DNA of 64,000 nucleotides from a virus (lineage: Duplodnaviria > Caudoviricetes): the IMG/VR virus record IMGVR_UViG_3300021399_003927, positions 65,492 to 129,491 of that record. The stretch is one strand, 5' to 3'. Position numbers and translations under genes: made by a program. The notes beneath the pieces are model-generated. The model saw nothing but the letters and a program-made list of their open reading frames with translations, was not told where the DNA came from and ran no database searches. How positions within the stretch are numbered: position 1 is the stretch's first letter; each line of letters starts with the position of its first letter. This document shows, one piece after another, positions 2,080 to 24,892 of this stretch.

Positions 2080-2086
2080 AAATGAG

Positions 2087-2319: not shown

Positions 2320-2323
2320 TTTT

Positions 2324-2590
2324 TTATGAACTTTTTTCAGCTTTTTTGAAAAATTCTTTCAACTTGGTCAATTCTGCAAGTTGGAAGGTGTATTCATCAG
2401 CACTGATTATCAATTCATCTTTATCTTCTTCAATGCTAACAATCTGTGCCTTTAGCTTTTCAATAAGGCTTGCTTTTAATGCCTCACGATACTTGACGCT
2501 AACTATATTAGTAGCTTCACCTTTACTGTATCCAGCATCACATAAGTTTTTATACAACTCGTTTCTAAACTCTTTGTCTAATATTTTCAT
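2324..2590 (-). CDS. Hypothetical protein
   Basis: 88-aa ORF downstream of a promoter motif, phage-like composition. Confidence 0.7.
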   Translation of the reverse strand: MKILDKEFRNELYKNLCDAGYSKGEATNIVSVKYREALKASLIEKLKAQIVSIEEDKDELIISADEYTFQLAELTKLKEFFKKAEKSS

Positions 2591-2644
2591 AACCGTTTTG
2601 TTTTTAACAGTGCAAAGATATATAAAATATTTGAAACTTCCAAA

Positions 2645-2896
2645 TTATTTATGAACTTTTTTCTTAAAAATCACAATTTCTTTTGATTTTTCCCATATAG
2701 CCCATCCCATCATCACAAAAAAGGCAAATATCATAAATATTAGCACAAGCCAAGATAATGTACAACATATCAAAGCAGCAATGATGTCAGATAGCCTAAT
2801 TTCATCAATTCGGAGTTTTTCACTTCTATCACATCGTACTAGTAGAACTAATAGAAATGCAACAAAGCACCCAATAAGATAAATTGTCATAACCAT
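2645..2896 (-). CDS. Hypothetical membrane protein
   Basis: Two hydrophobic segments. Confidence 0.65.
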   Translation of the reverse strand: MVMTIYLIGCFVAFLLVLLVRCDRSEKLRIDEIRLSDIIAALICCTLSWLVLIFMIFAFFVMMGWAIWEKSKEIVIFKKKVHK

Positions 2897-2916
2897 TTGT
2901 CCATCAATTTGTTAAG

Positions 2917-3274
2917 TGGAGCTAGAGTGAATCGAACACTCGTCCATACTACCATCCCATAAGAGATTACACAAGCTTTAAAATTGGAAAGTTGACATTG
3001 CTGTCCTCACCGCCACCTCATTTTGCGAAAACGAGGAAAACTAGGGGGATGACTAGAGTCATCAGTCCACCATTCGGTTTCAAAAAACCGACAAAAAGTT
3101 GCATGGATGTTCTGTTCCTAAGAGCCATGCCTCTCGGCTCACATTACGCTGCTACAGCGTACTCGTAAGCAGGAGAATCAACATTCTCGCCGTTTATATT
3201 TTTTTGCTATTTCTAGTGTATGCCCACTGCTTGTCTCTTACCAAATGTATAGCTGTCTATACCATTGTAGCCCC
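2917..3274 (-). ncRNA. ssrA: tmRNA, tag peptide GENVDSPAYEYAVAA (3144-3191)
   Basis: 5' GGGGCTA...GAC, 3' T arm + TAGCTCCA with G3-U70; resume codon after ATAAAC; tag ends AVAA*. Confidence 0.93.
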
Positions 3275-3301
3275 ATTATGTCAAAGAACTCTTTCTTATT
3301 G

Positions 3302-3378
3302 TCGAGACGGCAGGAGTTGAACCTGCGTGTGACCTACTACACTTTCTACTCCTTATCAGGGAGAGGTGATACGTCTCG
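3302..3378 (-). tRNA. D-armless tRNA-Ile(GAT)-like RNA with long variable hairpin
   Basis: CGAGACG/CGTCTCG+A; 8-nt linker in place of D arm; CTCC-CTGATAA-GGAG; GTG-TAGTAGGT-CAC in variable region; normal T arm. Confidence 0.7.
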
Positions 3379-3381
3379 CTG

Positions 3382-3591
3382 TTATAAAAATACTGTTTTA
3401 GCCTTGCTTAAAAATTCATCCACATTACCATTAAAAGTGAAACTATTACCTCCTACTCTAATATAGGTTTTTTCTTCACCATCACGGTTTTTATAGTCAT
3501 AAATATAATTTATATCAGCTTTTCTAAACAAATTTTTATGACCATCTGGATTAGTTATTTCCAAAAACGAATTTGTATAATCGTAATTCAT
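3382..3591 (-). CDS. Hypothetical protein
   Basis: 69-aa ORF. Confidence 0.6.
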   Translation of the reverse strand: MNYDYTNSFLEITNPDGHKNLFRKADINYIYDYKNRDGEEKTYIRVGGNSFTFNGNVDEFLSKAKTVFL

Positions 3592-3610
3592 ATTTCTATC
3601 TTAAAAAAAC

Positions 3611-3674
3611 GGAAGCGATTTTCTAGAATTATCAATTAAAAGTTGAGTCCTATTAGAAATTGCTGTAAGCTTCC
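3611..3674 (-). ncRNA. ACAGCAA-stem RNA 2 (short)
   Basis: GGAAGCTT-ACAGCAA ... GCTTCC; starts 2 nt after the upstream tRNA CCA. Confidence 0.75.
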
Positions 3675-3675
3675 T

Positions 3676-3754
3676 TGGTGCTTGCGATAGGATTTGAACC
3701 TACTGTACCCCACTATAAGATGGCGTGTGTCTGCCAATATATCACCCCTCAAGC
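3676..3754 (-). tRNA. Degenerate tRNA (Leu-type D arm, 6-nt loop CTTATA, encoded CCA)
   Basis: GCTTGAG/CGCAAGC-ACCA, T arm GTAGG-TTCAAAT-CCTAT; anticodon ambiguous. Confidence 0.5.
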
Positions 3755-3943
3755 ATGTTCGCACTCTGTACTCTTTCAAGCCATCGAGCACTTGTCTTGC
3801 ATTATCGTAGTTAAGACCAATATACGGCATTCTTGACCTAAAGTATGCTTACGGTGGAGTTAAATGTGTGTCCTCTGTTTTAAGTCCGCGCAATTTCCCC
3901 ATAACTCCCAAGAGACTTATGCGCTTGACTGATACTCAAGTAG

Positions 3944-4019
3944 TTGGAGGTAACGGATTCGAACCGATGACCTTCTGCTTGTAAGGCAGACGCTGCTGAA
4001 CCAACTGAGCTAACCTCCA
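3944..4019 (-). tRNA. tRNA-Val(TAC)
   Basis: TCTGC-CTTACAA-GCAGA, full cloverleaf. Confidence 0.93.
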
Positions 4020-9158: not shown

Positions 9159-9533
9159 TTACTCCCCTAATGTTGGAAGGGATGCTTTTCTTATCATTGT
9201 CGGCATAAGTGGGTCATCAGTTCTTTCAAACCCAAATTTCTTATAGAAAGCAACCAAACCGCTTACAGTTCTATGATTGATACTTTCATCCACTCTTGGC
9301 ATAGGTACTACGTTTAGACGTAATTCATAACCTTTAAAGTCTTCAATCATCTTGTTCAACATAGAGGTTGCTATACCATTTCCACAAGCTGATAGGTTAG
9401 TTATGACATATATAATTTTAGCAACTTTTCCATCGACATATACGCCCAACTTGCCTATTCTGTTGTCGTTATTGTCAAAAGCATTAACATAATAATAGTC
9501 TTTGCCTCTTTTAACTTGTAGTTTATACTCCAT
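9159..9533 (-). CDS. GNAT acetyltransferase
   Basis: CGNGIAT acetyl-CoA motif; FYKKFGF. Confidence 0.8.
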   Translation of the reverse strand: MEYKLQVKRGKDYYYVNAFDNNDNRIGKLGVYVDGKVAKIIYVITNLSACGNGIATSMLNKMIEDFKGYELRLNVVPMPRVDESINHRTVSGLVAFYKKFGFERTDDPLMPTMIRKASLPTLGE

Positions 9534-10983: not shown

Positions 10984-12054
10984 CTATTTCTTGTCAAATA
11001 TCACCCCATCTGGTAAATCATTGTCTACCACTTTCTTCTCCTTGTAGTAGTCCAAATAGGCATTTCCATCGTCATTGATGATGTATTCGATGCCTCTTGA
11101 ATATTCATAGGTAGATGCAACACCTTGCAGCATAAAGAAGAAAAATCCATCCTTATCTACTAGTCGCAACCAATGGGAATCATTTGTATTTTCCTCTTGT
11201 ATGATTTTGTACTTGTCCGTTGCCTTTACCTTTTCTATGTATTTGTTGAAAGTTGGGGCAAACTTACCAGTTGCACAATCACCTCTGAAACGAACAGATT
11301 CAAACCCTATTTTCTTAGCCCATTCGACAAAATTCTCAACGAATGTAGGAAAGTTCTCAATTTCCTTATACACAACACTCACTGCTGATGTTGTTATGTT
11401 TCTGTCAAGAAGCTGTACTATCAAGCTAGTAAGCTCTTCGTCTGTCGGAATTCTCCAAGTGTTAAATATCTCTCTTCGTGCATCTAAATTATAATGATGA
11501 ATTGAAATATTTACATAGTTAACCACGCCAATTAATGAATCTAAAACTTCATTCAGCTTATATCCATTTGTGGTAAGGGTCACTCTGTTAATTTTATCCA
11601 ACCATTTAGAGTTTTTTAGCCTCCTTAACACTTTCCTTAACAAGTCTGGATTGAACGTTGGTTCATTTCCAGTTATGTCAAGACTAATTGGCTGTTTGCC
11701 GTATACTCTATCAACCACATCGCCAAGAGAATCAATAAATCTGCTCAAGAATAAGTCATAGTCATGCTCCATGTTCTTATATCCGTTCATAAAACAAAAC
11801 TCACACTTTGCTTGGCAGAAAGATGGGATTATCAACTTAATTGAAACCACATTCTCATAGTCAACTCTTACGTTGTAATTGTCAAGTACCCATAAATGCC
11901 ATTTTGCAGCATTCACAACATTTTCATTCTCATGCTTTAGAAGAGATTCAACATAACCTCTGTCCAAGGTAAAATCCTTTTTCAGCTTATGGTATATGTC
12001 TGTCCATTTCTCCCTTTTGTGTTCTAAAATTGTCTTTTTGACATCTTTCCACAT
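10984..12054 (-). CDS. Radical SAM protein
   Basis: CQAKCEFC (CxxxCxxC), TGNEP, TTNG, NISIH. Confidence 0.9.
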   Translation of the reverse strand: MWKDVKKTILEHKREKWTDIYHKLKKDFTLDRGYVESLLKHENENVVNAAKWHLWVLDNYNVRVDYENVVSIKLIIPSFCQAKCEFCFMNGYKNMEHDYDLFLSRFIDSLGDVVDRVYGKQPISLDITGNEPTFNPDLLRKVLRRLKNSKWLDKINRVTLTTNGYKLNEVLDSLIGVVNYVNISIHHYNLDARREIFNTWRIPTDEELTSLIVQLLDRNITTSAVSVVYKEIENFPTFVENFVEWAKKIGFESVRFRGDCATGKFAPTFNKYIEKVKATDKYKIIQEENTNDSHWLRLVDKDGFFFFMLQGVASTYEYSRGIEYIINDDGNAYLDYYKEKKVVDNDLPDGVIFDKK

Positions 12055-12084
12055 ACTACTGAGTTATTAATTGATGAAACATTG

Positions 12085-12155
12085 CGGAGGTAGAGGGAAT
12101 CGAACCCACACCTAATGGTTAACAGCCACTTGCTCGACCTTCGAGCTACACCTCC
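12085..12155 (-). tRNA. tRNA-Asn(GTT)
   Basis: AGTGG-CTGTTAA-CCATT. Confidence 0.9.
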
Positions 12156-12162
12156 AATTTTG

Positions 12163-12240
12163 TGGATGCAATAGGATTCGAACCTATGTTTTTTTACCAT
12201 TGTATATGGTCACTCCCCAGAGGAGTCCTTACACGCATCC
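12163..12240 (-). tRNA. Atypical tRNA-like RNA (Val TAC-like loop, aberrant D arm)
   Basis: GGATGCG/TGCATCC, normal T arm, ACTCC-TCTGG-GGAGT, ACCA-TATACAA-TGGT. Confidence 0.55.
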
Positions 12241-12244
12241 ATAT

Positions 12245-12436
12245 TTAGTCATTACAAAAATGTACCCAATAGGTATCATCTTTAATATCCTTTAAAACTT
12301 TTTTCCTATCCCAATTATGTAGTATACATAATTTCCATAACATTTTTTTAGATAAAGGATTTATACACCCAAAAGGTGTAGTTCCAATAAGAGAATTTAA
12401 CACCTCAATATGCTTTGTGTTACGTATTTTATGCAT
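12245..12436 (-). CDS. Hypothetical protein (start MHKIR)
   Basis: The longer ORF call overlaps tRNA-Asp. Confidence 0.55.
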   Translation of the reverse strand: MHKIRNTKHIEVLNSLIGTTPFGCINPLSKKMLWKLCILHNWDRKKVLKDIKDDTYWVHFCND

Positions 12437-12458
12437 AGTTATTATAATTTCAATTTTG

Positions 12459-12530
12459 CAGTGACGATGGGATTCGAACCCACGACTTTTGGTTAGACAG
12501 ACCAACGCTCTACCACTGAACTACGCCACT
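12459..12530 (-). tRNA. tRNA-Asp(GTC)
   Basis: TTGGT-CTGTCTA-ACCAA, G73 (unusual U37). Confidence 0.85.
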
Positions 12531-12548
12531 ATTTGAACTAATTTTTTG

Positions 12549-12621
12549 AGCCGTGTGAGGGATTCGAACCCACGACATTCACATTACAAGGGTGACGCTC
12601 TACCAACTGAGCTAACACGGC
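12549..12621 (-). tRNA. tRNA-Thr(TGT)
   Basis: Loop CTTGTAA. Confidence 0.9.
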
Positions 12622-12703
12622 ATTGTTAAACTAGGTCTGCACTCCCCTCGCATGCTACGTGTCGGAGTTACTTGCATTGCTGCATTTGTTGTTACCTAGT
12701 TTG

Positions 12704-12776
12704 TGGGGCTGGGTGGAGTTGAACCACCGACACGAGGATTTTCAGTCCTCTGCTCTACCACCTGAGCTACAGCCCC
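12704..12776 (-). tRNA. tRNA-Phe(GAA)
   Basis: GAGGA-CTGAAAA-TCCTC. Confidence 0.95.
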
Positions 12777-12924
12777 AATATTCATTTGTCAATTTTATCA
12801 AGAATCTCTTGAGCCAAATTTATCATCTTGCCTAATTTTCCCATTTTTTTTTGCAAATATATGATTTTTTTTTCAAATAGCCAAATTTTTTCTCCACTTT
12901 AACATACCTTAACTATAGGCACAT

Positions 12925-12967
12925 AAAAAAGCTGCTGAATACTTTTTTGAGAGTTCTTCAACAGCTT
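12925..12967 (-). terminator. Intrinsic terminator, possible attenuator
   Basis: AAGCTGTTGAA ... TTCAGCAGCTT followed by T-run. Confidence 0.65.
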
Positions 12968-13006
12968 GGGAAATATATAGTGAAGTAAGTGCCTACATTA
13001 AACCTT

Positions 13007-13132
13007 TCATACCTCTATATCACCGTCTAGCTGTTCTAGAACTGCGTCTGAATTAAACACAACTGTATCATTCCATTTACTATTCGCAAATGAATCAGAT
13101 GTCTTAACGATATTTTTAATAGTTGTGTTCAT
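13007..13132 (-). CDS. 41-aa small ORF, possible leader peptide
   Basis: MNTTIKNIVKTSDSFANSKWNDTVVFNSDAVLEQLDGDIEV, directly before the terminator. Confidence 0.45.
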   Translation of the reverse strand: MNTTIKNIVKTSDSFANSKWNDTVVFNSDAVLEQLDGDIEV

Positions 13133-13216
13133 GATATAAAAGTTTAATTGATTTTTCTATAATTATATATTAACTCTCAAAAAGTTCTATTTTTTTGTAA
13201 TTTTTTTTGTATTTTT

Positions 13217-13648
13217 TTAATTTAAGTAGTTTTCATACTTTTTGCACTTTTCTTTCACCTCATTAAAATACTGCATGGCAGCTTCATTTGAAGTAAATCT
13301 TTTATGTACATTGTTGTTATAATCAGAACAATACACATCGACCTCTGCTTTAAAATATACGGTGTCATTCTTTAGGAAATAATGATGCCATCCATACTTA
13401 CTTTCAGCAGCATCTTTCAATTTTGCAAAACGGCACATACGGCCACTTGCTTTGTATAAGTTATGTTTCGCATGAAGTGGAATAAGAGGTATTATCCCCC
13501 AAAGTTTCCAAAAATAAATTTTTCCCTTCGGTACTGCTACCTCCATTTTTTCACCTTCTTGTACTGGAGTAAACTCTATGCTTTTAATACTTCTGTAAAA
13601 AGCTCCACCTTCTAATCTAATAGGTGCGTATGTTTCATTATTGTCCAT
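13217..13648 (-). CDS. Hypothetical protein
   Basis: 143-aa ORF after a promoter. Confidence 0.75.
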   Translation of the reverse strand: MDNNETYAPIRLEGGAFYRSIKSIEFTPVQEGEKMEVAVPKGKIYFWKLWGIIPLIPLHAKHNLYKASGRMCRFAKLKDAAESKYGWHHYFLKNDTVYFKAEVDVYCSDYNNNVHKRFTSNEAAMQYFNEVKEKCKKYENYLN

Positions 13649-13771
13649 TGTTAATATGGTTATTTAAAAATTTCACAATGCAAAGATATAAAAAATATCT
13701 TTAATTCCCAAATTTTTTCAGAAGTTTTTAAAAAAAAATTCAAAAAATTCAAGTATTTGAACTATTTTTTG

Positions 13772-13859
13772 TATAGGGGGTGGGAGTCGAACCCACAACT
13801 ATCTTTCGATAGACTGGTTTCGTAGACCAGGACGGTCATCCATTACGTTTTACCCCTAC
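13772..13859 (-). tRNA. tRNA-Arg(ACG) with long variable arm
   Basis: CTGGT-CTACGAA-ACCAG; V arm CTATC-GAAA-GATAG. Confidence 0.85.
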
Positions 13860-13865
13860 ATAAAA

Positions 13866-14024
13866 AGGAACGACCAATTTTATGTCTTGGCTCGACATTC
13901 GCTCTTACTTAAGGAGCATAGGTAAGTGCCTCGCAATGATGATTTAACGCTTCTCTTACCCTTGTCTAGTCTGAATTAAAAAATGTTGTTCGTGTAAATT
14001 TTAATCAAACTGCTGTACGTTCCT
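13866..14024 (-). ncRNA. ACAGCA-stem RNA 4 (non-tRNA multi-hairpin cargo)
   Basis: AGGAACGT-ACAGCAG ... CGTTCCT; internal GGTAAG/CTTACC, GCTC/GAGC, ATGTC/GACAT. Confidence 0.7.
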
Positions 14025-14067
14025 ACTGACACGCAGCTAGGCGCAACTGGGCTTCCTAGATACGATG

Positions 14068-14602
14068 TACATCCGCTGGGACTCGAACCCAGAACCTACG
14101 GCTTCGTACTACTCTATGTTACCATAGCCAAACTTAACAATAACGTATATACGAGGCACATGTCCCCATGCATCCAACCGATGATGCGTTAAATTTGTTG
14201 TAGTCTGGAATACATCTTTACCATATTGAAATTCTTGCGCAAGTTGAGCGTGCTTTATACGTTTACACTACTATACACGGTTGAGTATCTTATTGCCTCT
14301 CAATTTCAACTTAGGTATCTCCTATATACTCTCTACACATTTATGAGAATCTTTCACTATCCATCTTCTTCCATTTTATTGATGGCTCTTCTCAATTTAG
14401 CACGGTATAATCCTTACACATTATTGGTTAGTGTGTTTTTCATAAGCGATTGGGCATCTTTGTGTTCCAATGTAACTTCAACTTATTACTCTAACTTAAA
14501 AGAACTTCCACCGTTTTAGGGAGATTCTACTATGGGATTTCTCGCCATAGCATCCAATTTTACATAGAAGGCCGTTGCTCTAATCCATTGAGCTACGGAT
14601 GC
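14068..14602 (-). tRNA. tRNA-Arg(TCT) interrupted by a group I intron (exons 14566-14602 and 14068-14104)
   Basis: Joined exons give ACGGC-CTTCT|AA-GCCGT and a complete cloverleaf. Confidence 0.92.
14105..14565 (-). mobile_element. Group I intron (461 nt) at tRNA position 36/37
   Basis: Exon ends in U paired to G in P1 (TCT|A with TGGA); terminal G; P7 GAGTAT/GTATTC in GTAGAGAGTATA and AAGATGTATTCC. Confidence 0.88.
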
Positions 14603-14969
14603 ATTTACATTAACTCAATGTTGGGTCATTTTTGGGGTCGTAGTCATCGTGCAAAAAAGGCTCTGTTGGTGGAACTTCTACTGCATTGCGAAATTCATAC
14701 ACCATTATGCCTATAAATGCTACTAAAAACGCCAATACGATTATTCCAATTATTCTCATTTTTATTTATTTCTTTTTTTAGAATATTCTTCCAACTCTTC
14801 TTTAAAGGATTTCATTTTTTCCTTTTTACTTGGACGTTTCTTAGGGGAAAAACAAACTAGCATAATAAGCATGTATCCCCATATAAACAAAAATAAAATA
14901 AATAGTAACCTTCCCATAACATTTTCTATTTACGTTGCAAATATATGAAAAAAAATTGAAATAGCCAAA

Positions 14970-15992
14970 TTATTTTGACCTTTTTAACTTATTTCTATAC
15001 CAATTTTTCAAAATATCATAAATTCCTTTATTTCTTTTAACAAATATATCACCTTGTGGAATCTCCTTTGATGAATATTTTTTGAAACTACCTCTAGCAG
15101 TACCATTTTCCTCATTCCATCTTCCAATGACCCTTCTCATTTTCTTAATCAAATAAGAAATGTTGGCATCGCATAATTTAAAATAGTTTTTTGGTTCATC
15201 TATTCTCCTAATAGATGCATCAATATATTCTTTTGTGTTATCTTTTGTGTAATAATCATCTTTTGAAACATACACTCGTTTCAACAATTTGTAGTCTTTA
15301 ATTGTACCAGATAGCATTTTATAGGTCTTAGTGTCTCTGATGTCATTTTCATATTGTGACTCCATATACATTTCTTGAACCCACGCATCTATTTCGTCTC
15401 TATCTAATCTATAATATATCCAAGGTATCGTATAATCTACAATTTGTTTAATAGGGGTATTTGCGGCTGAATTAAAACCAAATTTGTTTTCTATTTCTCT
15501 TTGCGCCTTTGAATACTGGGGTGTGATATTAGTACCACCTCTTCTATATGACTGATAAGCATGTTTTATTTCGTGATTAATTGTAGATACAATATAGTTT
15601 TTTTCCCTATGAGGTATAGCATCTGTCATTGCCCACACAAACGAAAATGTTATCACTCTATTACTAGGAGAAAAGTTATTTTTCAAATAGCCATTACTAG
15701 AAATAAAATCCATAACGTCATCAAACGTTTCATTCTGTGGGTTATAATAATACAAATTGACAGTAATTCCATTTAAAAAAGACAATGTTTGAATATTATC
15801 AATATCTAAATTAAATGTTTTACCATATATTTTTTTATCACCAATCTGGAACGTTTGGCTTCTATATTCTCTATGATGTTCATATATCAAATTAAAAATG
15901 GCTATAGATATTTGCATAATATCATTTGACACGCCACCATATTCTAATATTACTTCTTTTACTATGGATTCTATGAGATTATTTTTAATCAT
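14970..15992 (-). CDS. Hypothetical protein with HExxH (zincin-like) motif
   Basis: NHEIKH plus downstream EIDA. Confidence 0.75.
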   Translation of the reverse strand: MIKNNLIESIVKEVILEYGGVSNDIMQISIAIFNLIYEHHREYRSQTFQIGDKKIYGKTFNLDIDNIQTLSFLNGITVNLYYYNPQNETFDDVMDFISSNGYLKNNFSPSNRVITFSFVWAMTDAIPHREKNYIVSTINHEIKHAYQSYRRGGTNITPQYSKAQREIENKFGFNSAANTPIKQIVDYTIPWIYYRLDRDEIDAWVQEMYMESQYENDIRDTKTYKMLSGTIKDYKLLKRVYVSKDDYYTKDNTKEYIDASIRRIDEPKNYFKLCDANISYLIKKMRRVIGRWNEENGTARGSFKKYSSKEIPQGDIFVKRNKGIYDILKNWYRNKLKRSK

Positions 15993-16047
15993 AACAAAAA
16001 TGACATCTATTATTTTAATTTATAATAAATATCATTTTAAACTAAAA

Positions 16048-16369
16048 ATAACTGAATGTGTTGTTACACCAAAGACAACGTATATACTTTACGCCTCACG
16101 ATTCACGTTTACAATTCGACCAAGAATCCAGCAGCGGCTTTAAAGGTTCTCCAACTTGACTTCACGAGCCTCATTCGGTCTTATATTTCAGATTCTCAGA
16201 CTTCGACCTCTCGTCTCTCGCCTATTAGGGATTTGCAACTCCCAAGTTATTTGGATGCACCTAGGGTTTTTATACGAGGTGTAAACCCATAAAACATACT
16301 ACCTCACCACTTACTGAGTACTGTCACTCCTTAGAAGATGGACACTACCAATCCTACTTTTTCAGTTAT
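16048..16369 (-). ncRNA. Candidate ~320-nt structured RNA
   Basis: 9-bp terminal stem ATAACTGAA/TTCAGTTAT, GC-elevated, no credible ORF, directly after tRNA-Leu. Confidence 0.5.
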
Positions 16370-16374
16370 CTATG

Positions 16375-16462
16375 TAGGGTAGAAGGGATTCGAACCCCCA
16401 CAAACCTCTCGGTTTCCACATCCTAAGTGTGGTGCGTCTCAACCTAATTGCGCCACTACCCC
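16375..16462 (-). tRNA. tRNA-Leu(TAG)
   Basis: CCACA-CTTAGGA-TGTGG, long V arm. Confidence 0.92.
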
Positions 16463-16475
16463 ATAATAAAAACTC

Positions 16476-16602
16476 GGAAACAATTGTTTTTAGACTGCCG
16501 TGTTTAGCCACTCCACCAACTTTCATCTAAGAAAGTGTGGGATTCGAACCCACGAAATCAATTACGATTAGCTGTTTTGAACAAATATTGCTGTTTGTTT
16601 CC
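16476..16602 (-). ncRNA. ACAGCAA-stem RNA 5 with permuted type-II tRNA module
   Basis: GGAAACAA-ACAGCAA ... ACAGC, V arm, T arm, ACTTTC-TTAGAT-GAAAGT (capped acceptor), D arm, GCAGT ... TTGTTTCC. Confidence 0.8.
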
Positions 16603-16630
16603 TTTATAAAAAAAAGCGATTGAATAATTG

Positions 16631-16704
16631 TAGGGGCGATGGATAATGCTCCCACTATCTCATGCTTATAAGGCATGTGCTTTTACTGTCTAAGCTACAC
16701 CCCA
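16631..16704 (-). tRNA. tRNA-Ile(TAT)
   Basis: CATGC-CTTATAA-GCATG; atypical T loop AGCATTA; T1:T72 mismatch. Confidence 0.8.
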
Positions 16705-16898
16705 ATCTTCCAATATGGATAATTCCTCTTTTCAGATTCTGGCGTATCTGTTAATTCATACCTTGCGCCACAGTAAGGACAATGGGCATAAGTCACCATT
16801 GCATCGTCTTCTTCACTCAAATCTTCTCCGTTGATTTCACTGAGCATAAAGTTTCCCTCTAGAATTAGGTCATGCTCACAACGCATACATTTTTCCAT
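16695..16898 (-). CDS. Small Zn-ribbon protein
   Basis: CMRC ... CPYC. Confidence 0.65.
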   Translation of the reverse strand: MEKCMRCEHDLILEGNFMLSEINGEDLSEEDDAMVTYAHCPYCGARYELTDTPESEKRNYPYWKIGV

Positions 16899-16916
16899 AT
16901 TGAATTAGTTTTATTG

Positions 16917-16988
16917 AGCAGTGTAGGAGATTCGAACTCCCTCCTTGACCTTGGCAAGGTTATATGCTACCATTAACACCAACACTGC
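16917..16988 (-). tRNA. tRNA-Gly(GCC)
   Basis: Loop TTGCCAA, U73. Confidence 0.9.
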
Positions 16989-17157
16989 AAAGTCAGTTTT
17001 TATAACCGTAAAACTGAAAAACTTCCTCCACCTACGATGAGGCAATAGTTTGAATTCCTTCAGGGACTACTGACGTTACGTTGAGCCTCAAATCTCTTTT
17101 GATGGTCTTTTTTAACGTGCAGATAATCTAGCAAGTAGTATGTACACGATATTTTAA

Positions 17158-17303
17158 GGAAACGTTTGTTGTTTATTTTAAGTGCTCTAGCCGACTGAGC
17201 TACCACGCTATGTTATTATAATTTAGCAGCGTGGGCAGGACTCGAACCTGCGACCCCTAGCTTGTAATGCTTTTTTAAACGATATACATTGCTGTACGTT
17301 TCC
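17158..17303 (-). ncRNA. ACAGCAA-stem RNA 6 with permuted tRNA (Val TAC-like)
   Basis: GGAAACGT-ACAGCAA ... TTACAAGCTAG, T arm, CCACGCT-G, AT-rich linker, AGCGTGG, D arm ... CGTTTCC. Confidence 0.82.
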
Positions 17304-17309
17304 ACGTTG

Positions 17310-17867
17310 AGCGAGTGAACGGAATCGAACCGTCATATTCAGCTTGCTTACCACACTATGTTACCATAGCCAAACAAATGCTTCCCTTTCAAGGCATATT
17401 TAACTCTTCTAAGCTCATTTGTCTGTTGTAGTCTGGAATACATCTTTACCATATTGAAATTCTTGCAAGATATATTTGAACATTCTTCCTCTTCTTTTTC
17501 CCAATAGGCTCTATATATTACGCAAAGAGTTGTACGCTATTATCCTCTTGGCAAGTTCAAATATAAATTTCAACTTAGGTATCTCCTATATACTCTCTAC
17601 ACATTTATGAGAATAAACTATTGGTTAAATAGACTTACTTACAAGGTTTTTCCTTTTCTTGTACCTATTATTCTCAATTTAGCACGGTATTATCCTTCCC
17701 CATTATTGTTTAGGAGGCACTGATAGTCTTATACAGTACGATTTATTATTATACTACTCGTAAGGACTTCCACCGTTTTAGGGAGATTCTACTATGGGAT
17801 TTCTCGCCATAGCACTTCATTTTCAGTCCTTTGGAGGGCTGACATTCTACCATTGAACTACACTCGC
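17310..17867 (-). tRNA. tRNA-Gly(TCC) interrupted by a group I intron (exons 17834-17867 and 17310-17346)
   Basis: Joined exons give TCAGC-CCTC|CAA-GCTGA, GCGAGTG/CACTCGC+U73. Confidence 0.85.
17347..17833 (-). mobile_element. Group I intron (487 nt) at tRNA position 35/36
   Basis: Core near-identical to the Arg intron; terminal G; exact 5' splice site inferred. Confidence 0.82.
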
Positions 17868-18015
17868 TTGGTGAACTAACTTAGTGATGTTCCACAAATG
17901 TATTTTATGAACACATATATTTAATGAAAAGACAAGAACATCTAGTTTGGTATTAGTTCGTGAGCTGTTTACTTTTCGCAGCAACCGTTTATCTAACTAC
18001 CTACTTTGCAGAAAT

Positions 18016-18031
18016 GAGGAGAATGTAGACA
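18016..18031 (-). promoter_or_regulatory. Putative target site of the guide-loop RNAs
   Basis: TGTCTACATTCTCCTC is complementary to GAGGAGAA+TGTAGACA and overlaps the ATG of an 11-aa ORF (17997-18032). Confidence 0.5.
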
Positions 18032-18106
18032 TTTGATAGTCGATAAACTTGCGGTTTTAACGATTCACCGCCAACGCCTTATTTTTTAGTATTCTCCTAA
18101 AACTCT

Positions 18107-19129
18107 TTACTGAACAGTAGTTGGCTTAACGATTGCCAAACGGTTAAGCTTAACACCCTCACCTACGGCCTTATTAACTCTCACACCACGAGCCTTAAGG
18201 TACTCTGCAACAGCATCTGCTCTGCGCTGTGAAAGCTCCTTGTTATAAGCTTCACTACCCTCTGGTGATGCATATCCGAACACGTCAACGATACCATCTT
18301 GTCCGATTGTGTTAAGAACTGCCTTTGCATCACTTGTAAGCTCTGCGCTATTGAAAGCGAACTCAACCGTCCACTCATTAGTCTTTTCAACAACACGGAA
18401 GATAGGTTTCTCAACAACAACTTGCGTTACAACCGTATCAACTGGATGTAGTCTCTGACACTCATCAAGAGCACCATTGAGTCGGCTAATCTCAGCATTC
18501 ATTGCGCCAATGTCATAAGTCTTGAAGTGATGAGTACCGTTGCTAGTCTTGAAGTGGTATACATAACTTACGTTAAGTGCCAACTGTGAACCACGCTTAT
18601 CAAACTGAATATCACCAAACTTGTGGAGATTCCAATAGATTGCTGGAGTCAAGACCAACGAATGAGCCTTTTTCTTACCAATGTTCCAAGCAAAGTCAAG
18701 ACCTGTCTTAGAACTTAGATAGTTGTTACTTGTGTTCCATGTATGAAGCCAACCGATACCTGCAATTGCACTAACTTCAAACTTCCTAGGAGTACCTTGG
18801 TATCCACCAAATACATTTGACAAATTGAGTGCGCCATTAAGACCTACGTTTGTTGCCTTTACTGATGTCTTGATGTCAGTGAAATGGTTGTCATTCAAAA
18901 ATGCCAAACCTTCTACTTGGAAACCGAATGCTGGAGTGAAATCCTTAGTGAACTTAAGACCAACATTTGTGTTGAGAGGGAAAACTGAGTTGAAGTCAAG
19001 CGGAGTTGAAACGCCACCAGTGATACCGATGCCAATGTTATCAAGTGCTGAACTGTTCTCAGTTGCAATCTGTGCCTTTGCACCAACTACGGCACTAAAA
19101 AGTGCCAACATTAAAATTAATTTTCTCAT
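18107..19129 (-). CDS. OmpA family outer membrane protein
   Basis: Signal peptide, beta-barrel region, C-terminal FAFNS ... GYASPEG ... YNKELSQRRA. Confidence 0.92.
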   Translation of the reverse strand: MRKLILMLALFSAVVGAKAQIATENSSALDNIGIGITGGVSTPLDFNSVFPLNTNVGLKFTKDFTPAFGFQVEGLAFLNDNHFTDIKTSVKATNVGLNGALNLSNVFGGYQGTPRKFEVSAIAGIGWLHTWNTSNNYLSSKTGLDFAWNIGKKKAHSLVLTPAIYWNLHKFGDIQFDKRGSQLALNVSYVYHFKTSNGTHHFKTYDIGAMNAEISRLNGALDECQRLHPVDTVVTQVVVEKPIFRVVEKTNEWTVEFAFNSAELTSDAKAVLNTIGQDGIVDVFGYASPEGSEAYNKELSQRRADAVAEYLKARGVRVNKAVGEGVKLNRLAIVKPTTVQ

Positions 19130-19208
19130 AACTTTTTTTAATTGTGCTATTTTTTAATAATGTTATTTCAAATGCAAAAATATACAAAAAAATTGTAAAT
19201 CCCAAATT

Positions 19209-19514
19209 TTAGAATGGTAATTTATCAATTTTCTTTAATTTCCATTTGTATGTATACGTTCTAACCCCATTGTTCTTAACCATTTTATATGTTGGAGTGC
19301 TCACATAAAAACTTTTTCTTGTGAACGCTTTTATTATCAACGTAAATGCATCAGAACAATAAGGATAACTAGATGTTTCTATTGTAACCTCTATTTCATC
19401 ACCGACATTTTTGACGTCATATTCATCAATGCTGTCTTGAATTTCCTTAATGAAGAAATAGCAATACCTTGGAAAATCAATATGCTCTTTTGTTATTTTT
19501 TGATATTCGCCCAT
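19209..19514 (-). CDS. Hypothetical protein
   Basis: 101-aa ORF. Confidence 0.7.
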   Translation of the reverse strand: MGEYQKITKEHIDFPRYCYFFIKEIQDSIDEYDVKNVGDEIEVTIETSSYPYCSDAFTLIIKAFTRKSFYVSTPTYKMVKNNGVRTYTYKWKLKKIDKLPF

Positions 19515-19534
19515 AACATTTAATTAAAAAAAAC

Positions 19535-19648
19535 GGATACTTTTGTTTTAACCAATACCTCCGAAGAGGCTTTCTTCCTATTTTTGACGGAAAAATTTGG
19601 ATTCGAACCAAAAAGCTGTAACAAAAGTCACACTTGCTGTTAGTATCC
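19535..19648 (-). ncRNA. ACAGCAA-stem RNA 7 with minimal permuted T/acceptor/D module
   Basis: GGATACTA-ACAGCAA ... TTTGG-TTCGAAT-CCAAA, TTTTTCC ... GGAAGAA, GCCTC-TTCG-GAGGT ... AGTATCC. Confidence 0.78.
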
Positions 19649-19652
19649 TAGG

Positions 19653-19784
19653 TTGATGGTATGGGATTCGAACCCATGTTGCCGATAGGCTGCGCTCCTA
19701 CAAAATCATTCGCCCATTCATAGGATTCACTACTCTCTAGTTTCTTTTAGTGCCGCCTTGCGCAATCCTCTTACTGAACCATCA
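19653..19784 (-). ncRNA. tRNA-like RNA with ~65-nt domain replacing the anticodon loop
   Basis: TGATGGT/ACCATCA+A, perfect T arm, stemless D loop with AGAGGA, TGCGC/GCGCA, GCC-TATC-GGC. Confidence 0.7.
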
Positions 19785-19789
19785 ATTTG

Positions 19790-19862
19790 TCTAGGTGACC
19801 AGACTCGAACTGACAACCTCAGCATCCCAAATGCCGTGCGCTACCTATTGCGCCACACCTAG
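19790..19862 (-). tRNA. tRNA-Pro(TGG)
   Basis: CGGCA-TTTGGGA-TGCTG. Confidence 0.93.
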
Positions 19863-19963
19863 ATAAAACGATGCAAGTGATAAACCTCGCAGTTTTTTTA
19901 TTTAACGTGGAGAACCTTGGATACTTCCTGCGTTACCAAACTCCATTCCTACCTTATGGTTTC

Positions 19964-20098
19964 GGAAACATTTTTTTGCTTTCTCTACCAACTGAGCTAC
20001 CTCCCCAAGTTATCTGATTTTGTGGGGAGGGTGAGACTCGAACTCACGACCCTTTGATTATCAGTCAAATGCTTGCGTAATACTTGCTGTATGTTTCC
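19964..20098 (-). ncRNA. ACAGCAA-stem RNA 8 with complete circularly permuted tRNA-Ile(GAT)
   Basis: GGAAACAT-ACAGCAA ... CA-TTTGA-CTGATAA-TCAAA-GGGTC-T arm-CCTCCCCA, 16-nt linker, GGGGAGG-TA-GCTCAGTTGGTAGAG ... ATGTTTCC. Confidence 0.88.
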
Positions 20099-20158
20099 TT
20101 ATGTTTTGCAAAGATATACAAAATATTTTTTATTTCCAAATTTTCAAAGAACTTTTTT

Positions 20159-20341
20159 TCAATCCACCTCTATTTTGTTTCCGCAACTTGGACAAGTGAT
20201 AAACTTACCAATATAGGTTTCTCCAGCATATGACTGAACACCATAGGAACACTCTTTTTCTTCAATGTCAGATGCACTATATTCCAAATAAGAACAGCAT
20301 TTTGAACATTTAACTATATTTCCTTCTAATTTTTTTACCAT
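20159..20341 (-). CDS. Small Zn-ribbon protein
   Basis: CSKC ... CPSC. Confidence 0.65.
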   Translation of the reverse strand: MVKKLEGNIVKCSKCCSYLEYSASDIEEKECSYGVQSYAGETYIGKFITCPSCGNKIEVD

Positions 20342-20496
20342 TTTTTTTTTGACGTTAAAATCCCATTTCTTCTTTGGTAGGTTCTTCTGAACCGCCTATT
20401 CTTATACCTTCTGCCAATAGTTTCAGCATTTCCCTATCTTTTTCGTTTGGAAATCTTTTTTCTGCCATTCGATAAAATTTTCTTTTTTTCATATTT

Positions 20497-20528
20497 GGGT
20501 GTACGACAGGATTCAAACCTGCGTATAC
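20497..20528 (-). pseudogene. Orphan tRNA 3' half (His-like end ...CACCC)
   Basis: GCAGG-TTTGAAT-CCTGT-CGTACAC-CC directly after the HNH stop. Confidence 0.6.
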
Positions 20529-20530
20529 AT

Positions 20531-20941
20531 TTATTCTATTAATTTAATTTTACTTCTATGAAATCTCTTACTATTTTTATTTAAACTGCCAAAATTTTCT
20601 GTTAAACAATGGCAGTTGGGGCATAATAATTGAAGGTTTTCTAATTTATTATTTGTACAGTCCCCATCAATGTGATGAACCTCTAATGGAATGTTGTGTG
20701 TTATTGGGTGTTCTTCTCCCCAACCGCATTTTTCGCATTTATTATTATGCAACTCCATTAAATATTTTTTTATAAATGTTGGTATTTGATGTCCACCTTT
20801 CACAAAATTTTCTCCACTTAACCATCTTTGAATTAACTCATTATATCTATATTCAGCTGAACATTTATGACAACAAAATTTATTGTTTCTTTGTTCGTAT
20901 GTTAATTCTTTACCACAGTTAGTACATATATGCTTTTTTTT
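20531..20941 (-). CDS. HNH endonuclease (no ATG; frame open up to tRNA-His)
   Basis: EVHHIDGDCTNNKLENLQLLCPNCH; upstream in-frame KKHICTNCGK ... FCCHKC Zn ribbon. Confidence 0.75.
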   Translation of the reverse strand, partial: KKKHICTNCGKELTYEQRNNKFCCHKCSAEYRYNELIQRWLSGENFVKGGHQIPTFIKKYLMELHNNKCEKCGWGEEHPITHNIPLEVHHIDGDCTNNKLENLQLLCPNCHCLTENFGSLNKNSKRFHRSKIKLIE

Positions 20942-20944
20942 TAG

Positions 20945-21017
20945 GGTGAAAGGAGAATTTCGAAATCTCGCCCTCTTGGTTCACAGCCAAGCGCTCTTCC
21001 TCTGAGCTACAATCACC
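20945..21017 (-). tRNA. tRNA-His(GTG)
   Basis: G-1:C73, CTTGG-CTGTGAA-CCAAG; two acceptor mismatches. Confidence 0.85.
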
Positions 21018-21209
21018 ATATTTGAACAGTAGTATATACCATTACGAGCATATACCATTACTAGTTACTATCAATTACCTCAACATATCGTTATCATTTT
21101 TACAGTACTACTATTATATGACTATTGTTTGCCTACTTCTTATCAAGTCTGTTCTTCTATGTAGACTTCCGAGCATTGTCCAAAGCGGTGACTACAATCC
21201 CCCAATGCG

Positions 21210-21294
21210 TAGGCTGTATGGGACTCGAACCCATCGTTCTGTATGGTCTTCGTGCGCCTAACCGACTAGCGTTTCCCTACCACATTGACAGCCC
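21210..21294 (-). ncRNA. tRNA-like RNA without anticodon arm; D-like hairpin displayed on a stalk
   Basis: GGGCTGT/ACAGCCT, perfect T arm, TGTGGT/ACCATA enclosing CGCT-AGTCGGTT-AGGCG. Confidence 0.6.
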
Positions 21295-21306
21295 ATGTTA
21301 AAAAAC

Positions 21307-21419
21307 GGAATCCTTTAAACTAAGGTAGGTAGGGAGTCGAACCCTAATCTCTTGGTAAAATCCAAGGCTCTACCATTGAGCTACCCATCTGGAGTTTTTA
21401 CCTTATGCTGCAAGATTCC
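21307..21419 (-). ncRNA. RCAGCA-stem RNA 9 enclosing a non-permuted tRNA-like body
   Basis: GGAATCTT-GCAGCAT ... full cloverleaf with 6-nt loop ATTTTA ... GGATTCC. Confidence 0.72.
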
Positions 21420-21423
21420 TTTG

Positions 21424-21506
21424 TCAGGTGGGTAGGATTCAAACCTACGAACTTCTGCTATATCAACACGGCTATATTTGCAGAACAATGATGCCGTTTC
21501 CACCTG
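21424..21506 (-). ncRNA. tRNA-like RNA with possible D-region/anticodon-loop pseudoknot
   Basis: CAGGTGG/CCACCTG+A, T arm, TTCTGC/GCAGAA with 21-nt loop; ACGGC can pair with GCCGT. Confidence 0.6.
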
Positions 21507-21511
21507 TTTTG

Positions 21512-21584
21512 TCTAGATGAAAGGACTCGAACCTTCGACCCCAGCATCCCAAATGCCGCGTTCTACCTACTGAACTACACCTAG
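21512..21584 (-). tRNA. tRNA-Pro(TGG)
   Basis: CGGCA-TTTGGGA-TGCTG. Confidence 0.93.
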
Positions 21585-21593
21585 ATAGTTTTG

Positions 21594-21687
21594 TCGAGGG
21601 GGTGTGACTTGAACACACTTACTGCGAGTCCACTACGACAATTTGTTAATGCAGGGCGGTTTTACAGACCGCTGCCGTTACCCCTCG
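21594..21687 (-). tRNA. D-armless tRNA-Tyr(GTA) with extended variable domain
   Basis: CGAGGGG/CCCCTCG+A; 8-nt linker; GCGGT-CTGTAAA-ACCGC; CTGC ... GTC-GTAGTG-GAC ... GCAG; T arm. Confidence 0.75.
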
Positions 21688-21819
21688 AATTAAGCATAGG
21701 TTTCTCAACCACAATCCTTTCGAATTGACCACAGTGGTGAACTGTGTATGCTTTTATGTTTATTTAATTTTGGTAACGATATACCTGTTGGCTATATCTT
21801 TAAATTATTTTTATTAGAA

Positions 21820-21912
21820 AGTCAGTGGCGAGAGCATCGCCTGGTAAAATATTCACATACTCCACCAAGCTAAGTTGGATAAAATATATTAGAGTATGCT
21901 CTGCCACCGACT
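21820..21912 (-). ncRNA. Candidate ~93-nt hairpin RNA
   Basis: Long terminal helix AGTCGGTGGC-AGAGCAT / ATGCTCT-C-GCCACTGACT. Confidence 0.5.
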
Positions 21913-21919
21913 ATAGTAA

Positions 21920-21980
21920 GTGGTGCTTGCTGTTACACGCAATTTAAGAGAATGACTGCTTCCAAGCCAACTCACACCAC
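21920..21980 (-). ncRNA. 23S rRNA H43-H44 (L11-binding domain) mimic
   Basis: GTGGTG-TGA-GTTGGCTTGGAAGCAGTCATTCTCTTAAATTGCGTGTAACAGCAAG-CACCAC resembles 23S GTTGGCTTRGAAGCAGCCAT ... TTAAA ... GCGTAAYAGC. Confidence 0.75.
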
Positions 21981-22135
21981 ATATGGTTTAACCAAATAAG
22001 ATTCAGAAGAACGACTTACTGCATGAACAGACCTATGAATATCAGAGACAAAACTACCCATCTTGATATACGGTATGAACTTTTGTTCTTCCTTTCTTGA
22101 TTTATTCAACTTCATATCTCAATCTTGTTTATTCG

Positions 22136-22465
22136 TTATAAAGTATGTTTCATCCACACATAATCAGCATCTTCATCATCGTAACAGAAATCACTATATC
22201 CGTGATTAGCATACCAATCGTGTACCCAAGATGATTTTAGCACCTTCAGACATATTACAGTATAATTGTACTTCTTGACTTCTTTATCAGCAAGTTCAAG
22301 TATTCTGTTACCAAGTCCACGACCTCTTGCTGATTGCTCTACCTTTACGTTTGATAGATACATAGTATTCTTATCATCATTATAGGCATATAGAGCAAAC
22401 CTACAGCAATCATTCTTGTAATGATAAACTACACCCCAATCTGTTGTTTCTTTCGTGATGTTCAT
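22136..22465 (-). CDS. GNAT acetyltransferase
   Basis: V ... ARGRGLG; WYANHGY. Confidence 0.85.
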   Translation of the reverse strand: MNITKETTDWGVVYHYKNDCCRFALYAYNDDKNTMYLSNVKVEQSARGRGLGNRILELADKEVKKYNYTVICLKVLKSSWVHDWYANHGYSDFCYDDEDADYVWMKHTL

Positions 22466-23017: not shown

Positions 23018-23617
23018 TTATATGCCTAATGCTGTTTTATACTCTTTTGTCAAATCGTCACCGTAGATACTATTCCACCTCATATAGTGTTTACTGTAAA
23101 TGGTCTGTTTCGTTGTATCGAAATCCATATTATTAGGACTCAAGTACAGAAGATTAGAATCGTATGATGATGCCTTGCTCGTTCTGTTCTGTAAGCATAC
23201 ATTAAGCATCACATACTTGTATGGCTCACTGAACCTCTTGAAGCCAAACATCTGATATAATCTGCACAACCCCTCTGACTCAGCCTCTACAACAACTGGA
23301 CGTTTGAATTGTTTCAATATGTCTATCACCCTATTCATTACCTCTTTGGATGAACGTCTATGGGCTGTATCAATGATGAAATAATCAACTACTACGAACT
23401 CATTGAGTTTTACACCTGATAGCATACCTATCAACTCACCGTCATCTTCAATCTTGTAGACGAAGTAATCTTCTCCGCTATACAGTTTACTATAGTTCTC
23501 AGTGTAATAGACAAACTCATTGCTTGAGACTATTTCGTGAGGTTTGAAATATTCTCGCATCAATGCTTGAACCTTTGCCAAGTCATCTATGTTCTTCGTG
23601 CGCTGGATGTTTATCAT
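23018..23617 (-). CDS. GNAT-fold protein
   Basis: VDYFIID..HRR, RLYQMFGF. Confidence 0.65.
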   Translation of the reverse strand: MINIQRTKNIDDLAKVQALMREYFKPHEIVSSNEFVYYTENYSKLYSGEDYFVYKIEDDGELIGMLSGVKLNEFVVVDYFIIDTAHRRSSKEVMNRVIDILKQFKRPVVVEAESEGLCRLYQMFGFKRFSEPYKYVMLNVCLQNRTSKASSYDSNLLYLSPNNMDFDTTKQTIYSKHYMRWNSIYGDDLTKEYKTALGI

Positions 23618-23846: not shown

Positions 23847-24587
23847 TCAACTCTCCTTTATTGCAGATTCTTTTTCTACGGCATCTATAGTTGATGTAAC
23901 CTCTTTCAAACAACTAAAGAAGCCACTCCACCACATACCATAACCCTTAGAATGTAATGGGTACTCTTCTTCTTCGTGTTCAAGAACATACTTAGCCTTC
24001 ACAATTAGAGGCAGCAGAGTAGCACCATCAGTCTTCTCGCACTTGACAGCAATCACCTTGCCACCACGCTGAACCATACCGAACACAGGTGTCTTGGTCT
24101 TGGTTGAACGACCTTGAGTTCCTGGTGTGCGTCTGCTCTTGTGCTTGTTATTCTCTCTACCACCGATGTAAGCCTCGTCACACTCAACATCACCCTCAAG
24201 GGCGATAGTGTCATCTTGTGCGAACAGAGTTCTAATCTTCTGTAGGATGAACCAAGCGGTCTTCTGAGTCACGTCAATGTCTCTTGCAAGCTGATGGCTG
24301 CTGATACCCTTCTTGTGAGAAGAAATCAGATACATCGCCATAAACCACTTGCGAAGGTCAATCTTGGTGTTATTGAATATTGTACCAACCTTCTCACTAA
24401 AGTTCTTGTGACAGTTGGAACAACAGAAACGACCATCGGCTCTCTTGTGGCAATGGTGCTGACCGCAGTGAGGGCATACGACATCATCACCCCAACGAGA
24501 CTCAACGAGGGCTTGTTGGCATTTTTCCTCAGTGTTAAAGTAGGTAGCCACTGAGTACAGCGAATTGAATTTACTGAAATTAATCAT
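23847..24587 (-). pseudogene. Truncated IS1595-family (ISXO2-like) transposase fused to an unrelated ORF tail
   Basis: Zn ribbon RWG..VCPHC, HTH ISSHQLARDIDVTQKTAW, VECDEAYIGG; recognisable transposase sequence stops at LLPLI (~24001), before the later catalytic motifs. Confidence 0.8.
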
Positions 24588-24892
24588 AATGTCTCTAATA
24601 TATTTTATCCGTATCTTATTTATCTGTGTGCAAAGATACGAAAAATATTTGAGAAAAACAAATTTTTCAGCAACTATTTTCAGTCTGTACCTCATTTTTA
24701 GCTTATTTTATATCTTTTTGTAGCCAACAAGTATATCGTTACCTTAATTTTTCTATTTCATTTATTTATTATCGTCATAACAACACGGATATGGACATTT
24801 CACCCTTAATGCTCTATCACGCCCATCACAAGGGTTACAAGAGCATGCGTCACAACGTTTCTTCCATCTTTCATTATATTCATCCATAATAC

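Follow-up and report, generated by a model that had tools for sequence, protein, structure and literature searches.

What is the 16-nt sequence that follows an OmpA-like gene on the minus strand of this phage, and does it pair with the two short strands elsewhere in the genome that it matches base for base? The window analysed here (64,000 nt) is the second half of a virus record of 129,491 bp with an estimated completeness of 44%. An earlier note, made from the sequence alone, had pointed out that the site (TGTCTACATTCTCCTC, 18016–18031) is exactly complementary to two supposed guide strands, GAGGAGAA plus TGTAGACA, which occur together at 1894–1924 and again at 2038–2068. Its coordinates and its sequence are both confirmed, and a genome-wide count, which it had suggested, found TGTCTACATTCTCCTC just once in the entire record. 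We find that the site is the invariant apical loop of a previously undescribed structured RNA of giant gut phages. Judged from the sequences, the 16-nt complementarity is real, RNA-level and conserved, and not a chance match.

A structured RNA between the OmpA-like gene and a tRNA

Related phages were reached through the whole records behind loci that matched the gapped pattern of the two strands (see below), and a search of viral contigs with the OmpA protein found no related loci. Five of these relatives are complete (295–413 kb), with OmpA homologues that are 61–67% identical, and alignment of the relatives' flanks showed conservation all the way from the OmpA stop codon to the tRNA that comes next. 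Homologues of this region came via a 17-mer anchor taken from beyond the target; eight of its 12 matches in viral contigs were genuine structured-RNA loci and 43 of its 106 matches in metagenome contigs genuine copies, and two further copies came from whole-record searches. The resulting alignment (A3) holds 32 distinct full-length sequences. In the window the locus has the following parts, given in minus-strand order:

19175–19206, minus strand: promoter-like site TTTG-N-TAnnTTTG, upstream of the OmpA-like gene
18107–19129, minus strand: OmpA-like gene (Pfam OmpA, E 4.6e-11), with the structured RNA as its 3′ flank
17870–18100, minus strand: 231-nt structured noncoding RNA that separates the OmpA-like gene from the tRNA
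18091–18098, minus strand: cis competitor AGGAGAAU (AGGAGAAT), candidate pseudoknot partner of loop AUUCUCCU
18049–18073, minus strand: P2 hairpin (GGCGGU...ACCGC), compensatory change in 2 of 6 pairs
18035–18048, minus strand: 5′ strand of P3 (GUUUAUC-GACUAUC), a 14-bp stem with change on both sides in 5 of 14 pairs
18016–18031, minus strand: 16-nt target UGUCUACAUUCUCCUC, in the apical loop that caps P3; single-stranded in the consensus
17987–18001, minus strand: 3′ strand of P3, from covariation analysis of that helix
17873–17959, minus strand: closing stem P5, which encloses P6; compensatory change in 2 of 8 pairs
17886–17942, minus strand: variable hairpin P6, compensatory change in 6 of 7 pairs
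17309–17867, minus strand: tRNA-Trp(CCA) with a 464-nt intervening sequence, beginning 3 nt after the structured RNA

In relatives the structured RNA is 177–241 nt long. Across its six helices, compensatory change was found in 15 of 51 pairs (in P2, P3, P5 and P6), and 98.7% of the alignment cells were paired, as opposed to 31–45% when partners were slid; P4 and the candidate pseudoknot showed no covariation. Many pairs in the covarying stems are G-U, which assigns the RNA to the strand of the OmpA-like gene and the tRNA. This, and the finding that the target and the tRNA-like genes described below share one strand in 6/6 genomes, upholds the earlier proposal of a minus-strand RNA rather than a DNA motif. 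Searches against Rfam 15 returned no match at E ≤ 10 for 17300–18200 and none in the relatives at E ≤ 1, and in the literature we found no description of this RNA or of the tRNA-like RNAs; the supplementary motif lists of a 2017 survey could contain either.

From 19206 to 14969 the minus strand has no TTTG-N17-23-TAnnTTTG site other than the promoter-like one at 19175–19206, and terminator-like sites number zero in 16800–19400. We infer that the structured RNA is co-transcribed with ompA and the tRNAs and then released by processing. The tRNA begins 2–5 nt past the last helix in relatives, and the 3′ end of the structured RNA is probably set by RNase P cutting of that tRNA.

The target stands out within its loop. 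Its core GTCTACATTCTCCT (GUCUACAUUCUCCU) is unchanged in 32/32 distinct homologues, while the loop nucleotides that flank it vary freely on both sides. Among the 43 metagenome copies the target reads UGUCUACAUUCUCCUU in 34 and CGUCUACAUUCUCCUU in nine, position 1 being U in the former and C in the latter; the last position is C in the window alone and U elsewhere, and a U there still pairs with G as G-U. Measured from the OmpA homologue's stop codon, the site follows after some 100–120 nt in every complete relative, and it is syntenic in all five of them and in two fragments (36–37% complete). Expressed as the composite 16-mer, it recurs in 5/5 complete relatives, with one mismatch (AAGGAGAATGTAGACA) in four and two mismatches in the fifth (G002), whereas a reversed-pattern control in the same genomes gave 0, 0, 0, 0 and 1 matches. 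The segment at 18091–18098 that the earlier note had seen as a cis competitor is conserved as well: AGGAGAA(T) is paired with the loop in 27–32 of 32 sequences at each of its eight positions. This helix shows no compensatory change among the 32 sequences, and it accounts for just 8 nt of the invariant target block.

tRNA-like RNAs beside a GOLLD-like RNA

Both 8-mers occur twice on the minus strand, GAGGAGAA at 1917–1924 and 2061–2068 and TGTAGACA at 1894–1901 and 2038–2045, and within each pair they are separated by a 15-nt hairpin segment. The pairs belong to two tandem units of about 115 nt (repeat families D2 and D3) that lie directly 3′ of tRNA-Met and are followed by a third RNA:

1969–2083, minus strand: tRNA-like RNA copy 1, 126.9 bits with the R1 model; guide strands GAGGAGAA at 2061–2068 and UGUAGACA at 2038–2045
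1822–1939, minus strand: tRNA-like RNA copy 2, 135.2 bits with the R1 model, fold z-score -3.47; guide strands GAGGAGAA at 1917–1924 and UGUAGACA at 1894–1901
1037–1821, minus strand: GOLLD-like RNA, directly 3′ of the tRNA-like pair; RF02032, 73.7 bits, E 2e-18

A gapped-pattern scan of viral contigs matched at least 114 stretches; among the matches listed, 26 in 14 loci share this context, and the others proved unrelated when their flanks were read. Alignment of 23 distinct copies, folded with RNAalifold, gave a consensus cloverleaf with an 8-bp acceptor stem, a 3-bp D stem, a variable-arm hairpin, a T arm with the loop UGCAAAU and an 'anticodon' stem of 7 bp capped by UUCGUG or GGUAA, in which 23 of 35 pairs show compensatory change. 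Inside an enlarged D-loop, a covarying hairpin is flanked by GAGGAGAA and AUGUAGACAAAU, both invariant and single-stranded. These RNAs thus have the cloverleaf, acceptor stem and T arm of tRNA (RF00005), but neither its 5-bp anticodon stem nor its 7-nt loop with U33, and they escape tRNA finders: the copies in the window were not called by ARAGORN, and Rfam gave no match, tRNA included, at E ≤ 1 over 1822–2083 or in locus L110. Of the earlier idea of guide RNAs the complementarity survives; free, programmable guides are rejected, the 'guides' being fixed D-loop segments of tRNA-like RNAs. We also rejected a hammerhead reading of the CUGAUG at the hairpin junction, a motif that varies among the copies.

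A covariance model (R1) built from the alignment found two copies in this record and 14 strong ones (93–136 bits, two or three per genome) in the five complete relatives. All 14 carry GAGGAGAA, and the second strand is UGUAGACA in 10 and UGUGGACA in four, a G variant that still pairs with the target as G-U. Weaker R1 matches include true type-II tRNAs with a GUA anticodon, whose D-loops read AGUAGACAAA with the T-loop UGCAAAU or AGUGGUCAAA with UUCAAAU; UGUAGACA itself is present in one true type-II tRNA (L163) and is ordinary D-loop sequence. D-loop and T-loop track each other in the tRNA-like copies too, GUGGAC going with UUCAAAU in 4/4 and GUAGAC with UGCAAAU in 9/10. Over copies and type-II tRNAs together, in genomes G001–G005 (L149–L165), GUAGAC was seen with UGCAAAU, and GUGGAC or GUGGUC with UUCAAAU.

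This co-change fits a tertiary pair of the 18/55 type with switched identity, and since the A/G variant tracks the T-loop, the bases of UGUAGACA are probably busy in the elbow of the folded tRNA-like RNA. From sequence comparison we read the units as derived from a Tyr-type tRNA that lost its decoding anticodon loop and gained a D-loop insertion, GAGAAC-hairpin-GAU. 'Guide 1' would then be the insertion, and 'guide 2' largely native D-loop that probably touches the T-loop.

On the 43 short metagenome loci with the structured RNA, the R1 model found ordinary tRNAs only (≤ 52 bits), and one of 10 pattern matches in prokaryote genome contigs is a family member. This copy (L296), with a loop nearer to a Tyr anticodon loop, sits on a 3.1-kb contig of a metagenome-assembled genome labelled Candidatus Onthovivens merdipullorum, and is probably phage DNA that was binned with that genome.

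The RNA next to the tRNA-like pair matches RF02032 over its full length, at 73.7 bits in the window against a gathering score of 150; each of the five complete relatives has one such match (62–86 bits, all below 150), and control genomes have none. It consists of a 3′ domain (1037–1470) and a conserved 5′ domain of 351 nt (1471–1821). Along the minus strand the order is promoter (2288–2319), tRNA-Met, two tRNA-like units, the 351-nt conserved stretch and the GOLLD match, and the same order holds in 5/5 complete relatives, where one or two tRNA-like units lie 371–626 nt upstream of the GOLLD match. Conservation extends over the stretch between the two, which contains covarying hairpins. All told, one or two tRNA-like copies stand just 5′ of the GOLLD-like RNA in 6/6 genomes. 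A second GUCUACAU on the minus strand (1677–1684) was rejected as a target because it is part of a local covarying hairpin in the 5′ domain of the GOLLD-like RNA.

Possible pairing of the loop with the D-loop pocket

As the earlier note expected, the site is kept together with the guide strands: both RNAs are present in 5/5 complete genomes and in the two fragments that are 36–37% complete, and tRNA-like copies accompany the structured RNA on 10 of 11 viral contigs, the exception being an 18-kb fragment. Three fragments carry tRNA-like copies only, but at 8–20% completeness they are uninformative. The complementarity is exact at the junction of the two strands, its edges coincide with the edges of the conserved target block, and the loop block, the best conserved unpaired segment of the structured RNA, faces the sole invariant unpaired strands of the tRNA-like RNA. 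Cofolding of the structured RNA with either window copy predicts a 16-bp duplex split around the hairpin, with gains of -10.1 and -12.0 kcal/mol; shuffling the loop 100 times gave gains that averaged -5.0 and reached -7.5 kcal/mol at best, so that 0/100 did as well. The trans duplex is calculated at -20.2 kcal/mol, the cis helix at -9.2 kcal/mol. Covariation between guide and target, to which the earlier note had looked, is not seen in relatives; with both partners invariant it cannot test the pairing, and further records held no informative variant. Matches with two or three mismatches in G012 and G013 were rejected as chance sites, since they lie outside the structured-RNA context.

From the two structures, their invariance, their synteny and their complementarity we infer that the RNAs pair, and on balance we think it somewhat more likely than not that the site is a trans RNA-RNA docking site which forms a three-way junction and has a pseudoknot as its competitor. 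In this model the loop of the structured RNA would dock into the D-loop pocket of the phage tRNA-like RNAs. The 3′ half of the target (UUCUCCUY) would pair with GAGGAGAA, the D-loop insertion, and its 5′ half (UGUCUACA) with UGURGACA, the native D-loop, and the covarying hairpin would protrude between the two 8-bp helices as the third arm of the junction. Where target position 1 is C, as in nine of the 43 metagenome copies, the duplex would end in a mismatch. Competition would come from the conserved 5′ AGGAGAAU, which could form a pseudoknot with half of the loop; this conserved partner in cis also speaks against docking, as do that terminal mismatch and the probable engagement of UGUAGACA in the tRNA elbow. 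As for consequences, our guess is that docking might tether or titrate the tRNA-like RNAs that flank the GOLLD-like RNA. A more elaborate version, in which loop and pocket serve as the addressing system of a GOLLD-type assembly, with the tRNA-like RNAs as handles, the OmpA-downstream RNA or the ompA transcript docked as cargo or partner, and the pseudoknot as a lid, strikes us as speculative and quite unlikely; if true, a GOLLD-class RNA would for the first time have a defined RNA partner, and the two would form a natural hetero-RNA complex.

The conserved cis partner also allows a simpler account, in which the loop is kept for the pseudoknot with the 5′ AGGAGAAU and/or for a protein, and its match to the tRNA-like RNAs has no function. 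This cis-only account would explain the conservation of AGGAGAA(U), paired as described above, and it sits well with UGUAGACA being usual for a D-loop and probably in contact with the T-loop in cis. However, the pseudoknot covers AUUCUCCU alone, whereas the adjoining GUCUAC is equally invariant (32/32) and no GUAGAC is visible in the structured RNA's own aligned sequence; moreover, the cis helix is weakened in some copies (AGAAGAAU in L249, GGGAGAAA in L179) with no change in the loop. Nor would it account for the junction-spanning 16-mer, of which an arithmetic estimate expects about 0.01 matches per genome at ≤ 1 mismatch, yet which is syntenic in seven genomes. We regard this account as unlikely. 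The same numbers make an accidental match extremely improbable: the exact 16-mer does occur in 11 unrelated viral contigs and neither 8-mer is remarkable alone, but accident is disfavoured by the retention of the site at its syntenic place in every sufficiently complete relative and by its invariance in 32/32 homologues.

If the two RNAs do pair, the pairing might also serve other ends than docking. Two strands that flank an upper hairpin, with a lower stem to close the pocket and one continuous target bound, resemble an H/ACA pseudouridylation pocket, and by analogy the D-loop could be a guide-type pocket that positions a loop nucleotide so that an enzyme of phage or host can modify or cleave it; the tRNA island does contain three GNAT ORFs and a radical-SAM ORF. 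Against this, the model leaves none of the 16 target bases unpaired, reading of the sequence shows no ACA or box elements at the expected spacing, no candidate enzyme is tied to either RNA and each genome has a single target, and we consider such a role distinctly improbable. The analogy with C4 control of icd drawn by the earlier note, in which an antisense switch would act on the start of an 11-aa ORF, the 3′ end of ompA or read-through into the tRNA cluster, has in its favour the two-segment antisense recognition and the competing cis helix. The ORF (MSTFSSFLQSR, 18032→17997) does overlap the site, but its start is not conserved, the start position reading ATG in seven of the 32 sequences, TTG in nine and a non-start codon in 16, and the peptides diverge immediately after the invariant block. 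Read-through control has no substrate, as there is no terminator-like site in 16800–19400, and Shine-Dalgarno sequences are not enriched (GGAG lies upstream of 3/98 ORFs against a background of 4.2%), for which reason anti-Shine-Dalgarno mimicry was rejected as well. With no Rfam C4 match in the window at gathering score or in 1–4000 at E ≤ 1, and a target that is the loop of a noncoding RNA, a C4-like switch is very unlikely. Finally, the plus strand reads GAGGAGAA|TGTAGACA, the D-loop minus its hairpin, and, as a relative of the hairpin-bearing D-loop, could be taken for an 'empty site' or for a site used by a protein or in recombination. Such a DNA-level feature is highly improbable given that the RNA hairpin whose loop holds the site is strand-specific and contains G-U pairs, that the D-loop hairpins differ among copies by compensatory changes in the fashion of RNA stems, and that the flanks share no similarity.

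Known RNA systems and the tRNA island

Antisense pairing between phage RNAs and tRNA mimicry are both known in kind; the architecture and the partners described here are new. The C4 antisense RNA of phages P1 and P7, which controls icd/ant, belongs to a family that we take to be RF01695 in Rfam. As in C4, two short antisense segments of a phage RNA would recognize two adjacent segments of another transcript (8 + 8 nt, contiguous on the target, in a duplex predicted by cofolding), and both kinds of RNA are made beside tRNA-type processing signals. In contrast to C4, the target forms a loop in a noncoding, structured RNA and covers neither the start nor the ribosome-binding site of any conserved ORF, and the antisense strands flank a hairpin within a tRNA-like D-loop.

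In the H/ACA pocket and in the U4/U6 three-way junction, a single uninterrupted strand is bound by the strands on both sides of a hairpin; these complexes of protein and RNA, from archaea or eukaryotes, have defined boxes and leave a target base unpaired. The strand topology proposed here would be the same, but boxes and unpaired target base are not seen: every target base is paired in the model, and no ACA box was found at the expected distance of about 14–16 nt. T-box riboswitches recognize a tRNA by its anticodon and its 3′ end. Here too a structured RNA would recognize a tRNA-shaped RNA by base pairing, although via the D-loop; there was no Rfam match to T-box at E ≤ 10 in 17300–18200, a region in which terminator-like sites are likewise absent.

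The bacterial and phage Y RNAs (YrlA) mimic tRNA and, going by the parts of that source available, are likewise noncoding RNAs with a tRNA-like module (PMC4201824). Unlike YrlA, the RNAs described here have an intact acceptor stem and an enlarged D-loop; Rfam gave no Y RNA match, and a Ro60/TROVE gene was found in 0/5 complete phage genomes, with two matches in the controls.

GOLLD forms a 14-mer cage, and GOLLD-class RNAs have solved cage-like structures and, in the accessible portion of that preprint, no reported function (Kretsch et al., 2025, bioRxiv). GOLLD is said there to lie often near tRNA islands, in one example downstream of a Met-tRNA, and tRNAs are sometimes located in its linker (Kretsch et al., 2025; cf. 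Weinberg et al., 2017). The tRNA-like pair described here similarly lies between tRNA-Met and the GOLLD-like RNA. The present case differs from GOLLD as described (RF02032) in that the matches score 62–86 bits, below 150, and that the flanking RNAs are tRNA-like and non-decoding; a complementary partner RNA of GOLLD is not mentioned in those parts of the literature that were available (including Kretsch et al., 2025; Weinberg et al., 2017). Thus two further conserved RNA families that lack an Rfam match are tied by an invariant complementarity of 15–16 nt, and one of the two physically adjoins a GOLLD-like RNA. Non-decoding tRNA-like genes in phage 'tRNA islands' can, on this evidence, carry dedicated recognition pockets.

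The surroundings gave several further observations. The island holds a tmRNA (2914–3274, minus strand, tag GENVDSPAYEYAVAA), 25 tRNAs called by ARAGORN and four more tRNA matches from Rfam only, all on the minus strand. The tRNA-Trp that follows the structured RNA is interrupted in its anticodon arm, as judged by ARAGORN with introns and by alignment to a relative's uninterrupted homologue; part of the insert (17564–17617) has 89–96% identity to crAss-like phage records, and Rfam gave no group I intron match at E ≤ 10 in 17300–18200. Another tRNA match from Rfam, 124 nt long and not called by ARAGORN (898–1021, minus strand), is possibly a further interrupted tRNA, and ARAGORN assigned a 2-nt anticodon to the tRNA at 21322–21390 (minus strand). 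Outside the window (G000:C1:63924–64009) lies a tRNA with a CUA anticodon, labelled Pyl by ARAGORN, which may be an amber suppressor, in which case TAG could be read as sense in part of the phage. Metatranscriptome runs labelled animal gut hold 20–35% of the words sampled from 12000–21999 of the window, a figure that says nothing on expression or habitat. The window has 25 sites of the form TTTG-N17-23-TAnnTTTG where 4.4 would be expected, and 24 lie on the minus strand; this consensus, which we take to be the Bacteroidota-type promoter, hints at a Bacteroidota host. Protein-coding genes of the island, all on the minus strand, include three GNAT acetyltransferase ORFs (9159–9533, 22136–22465 and 23018–23617), a radical-SAM ORF (10984–12054) and an IS1595-type transposase ORF (23847–24695).
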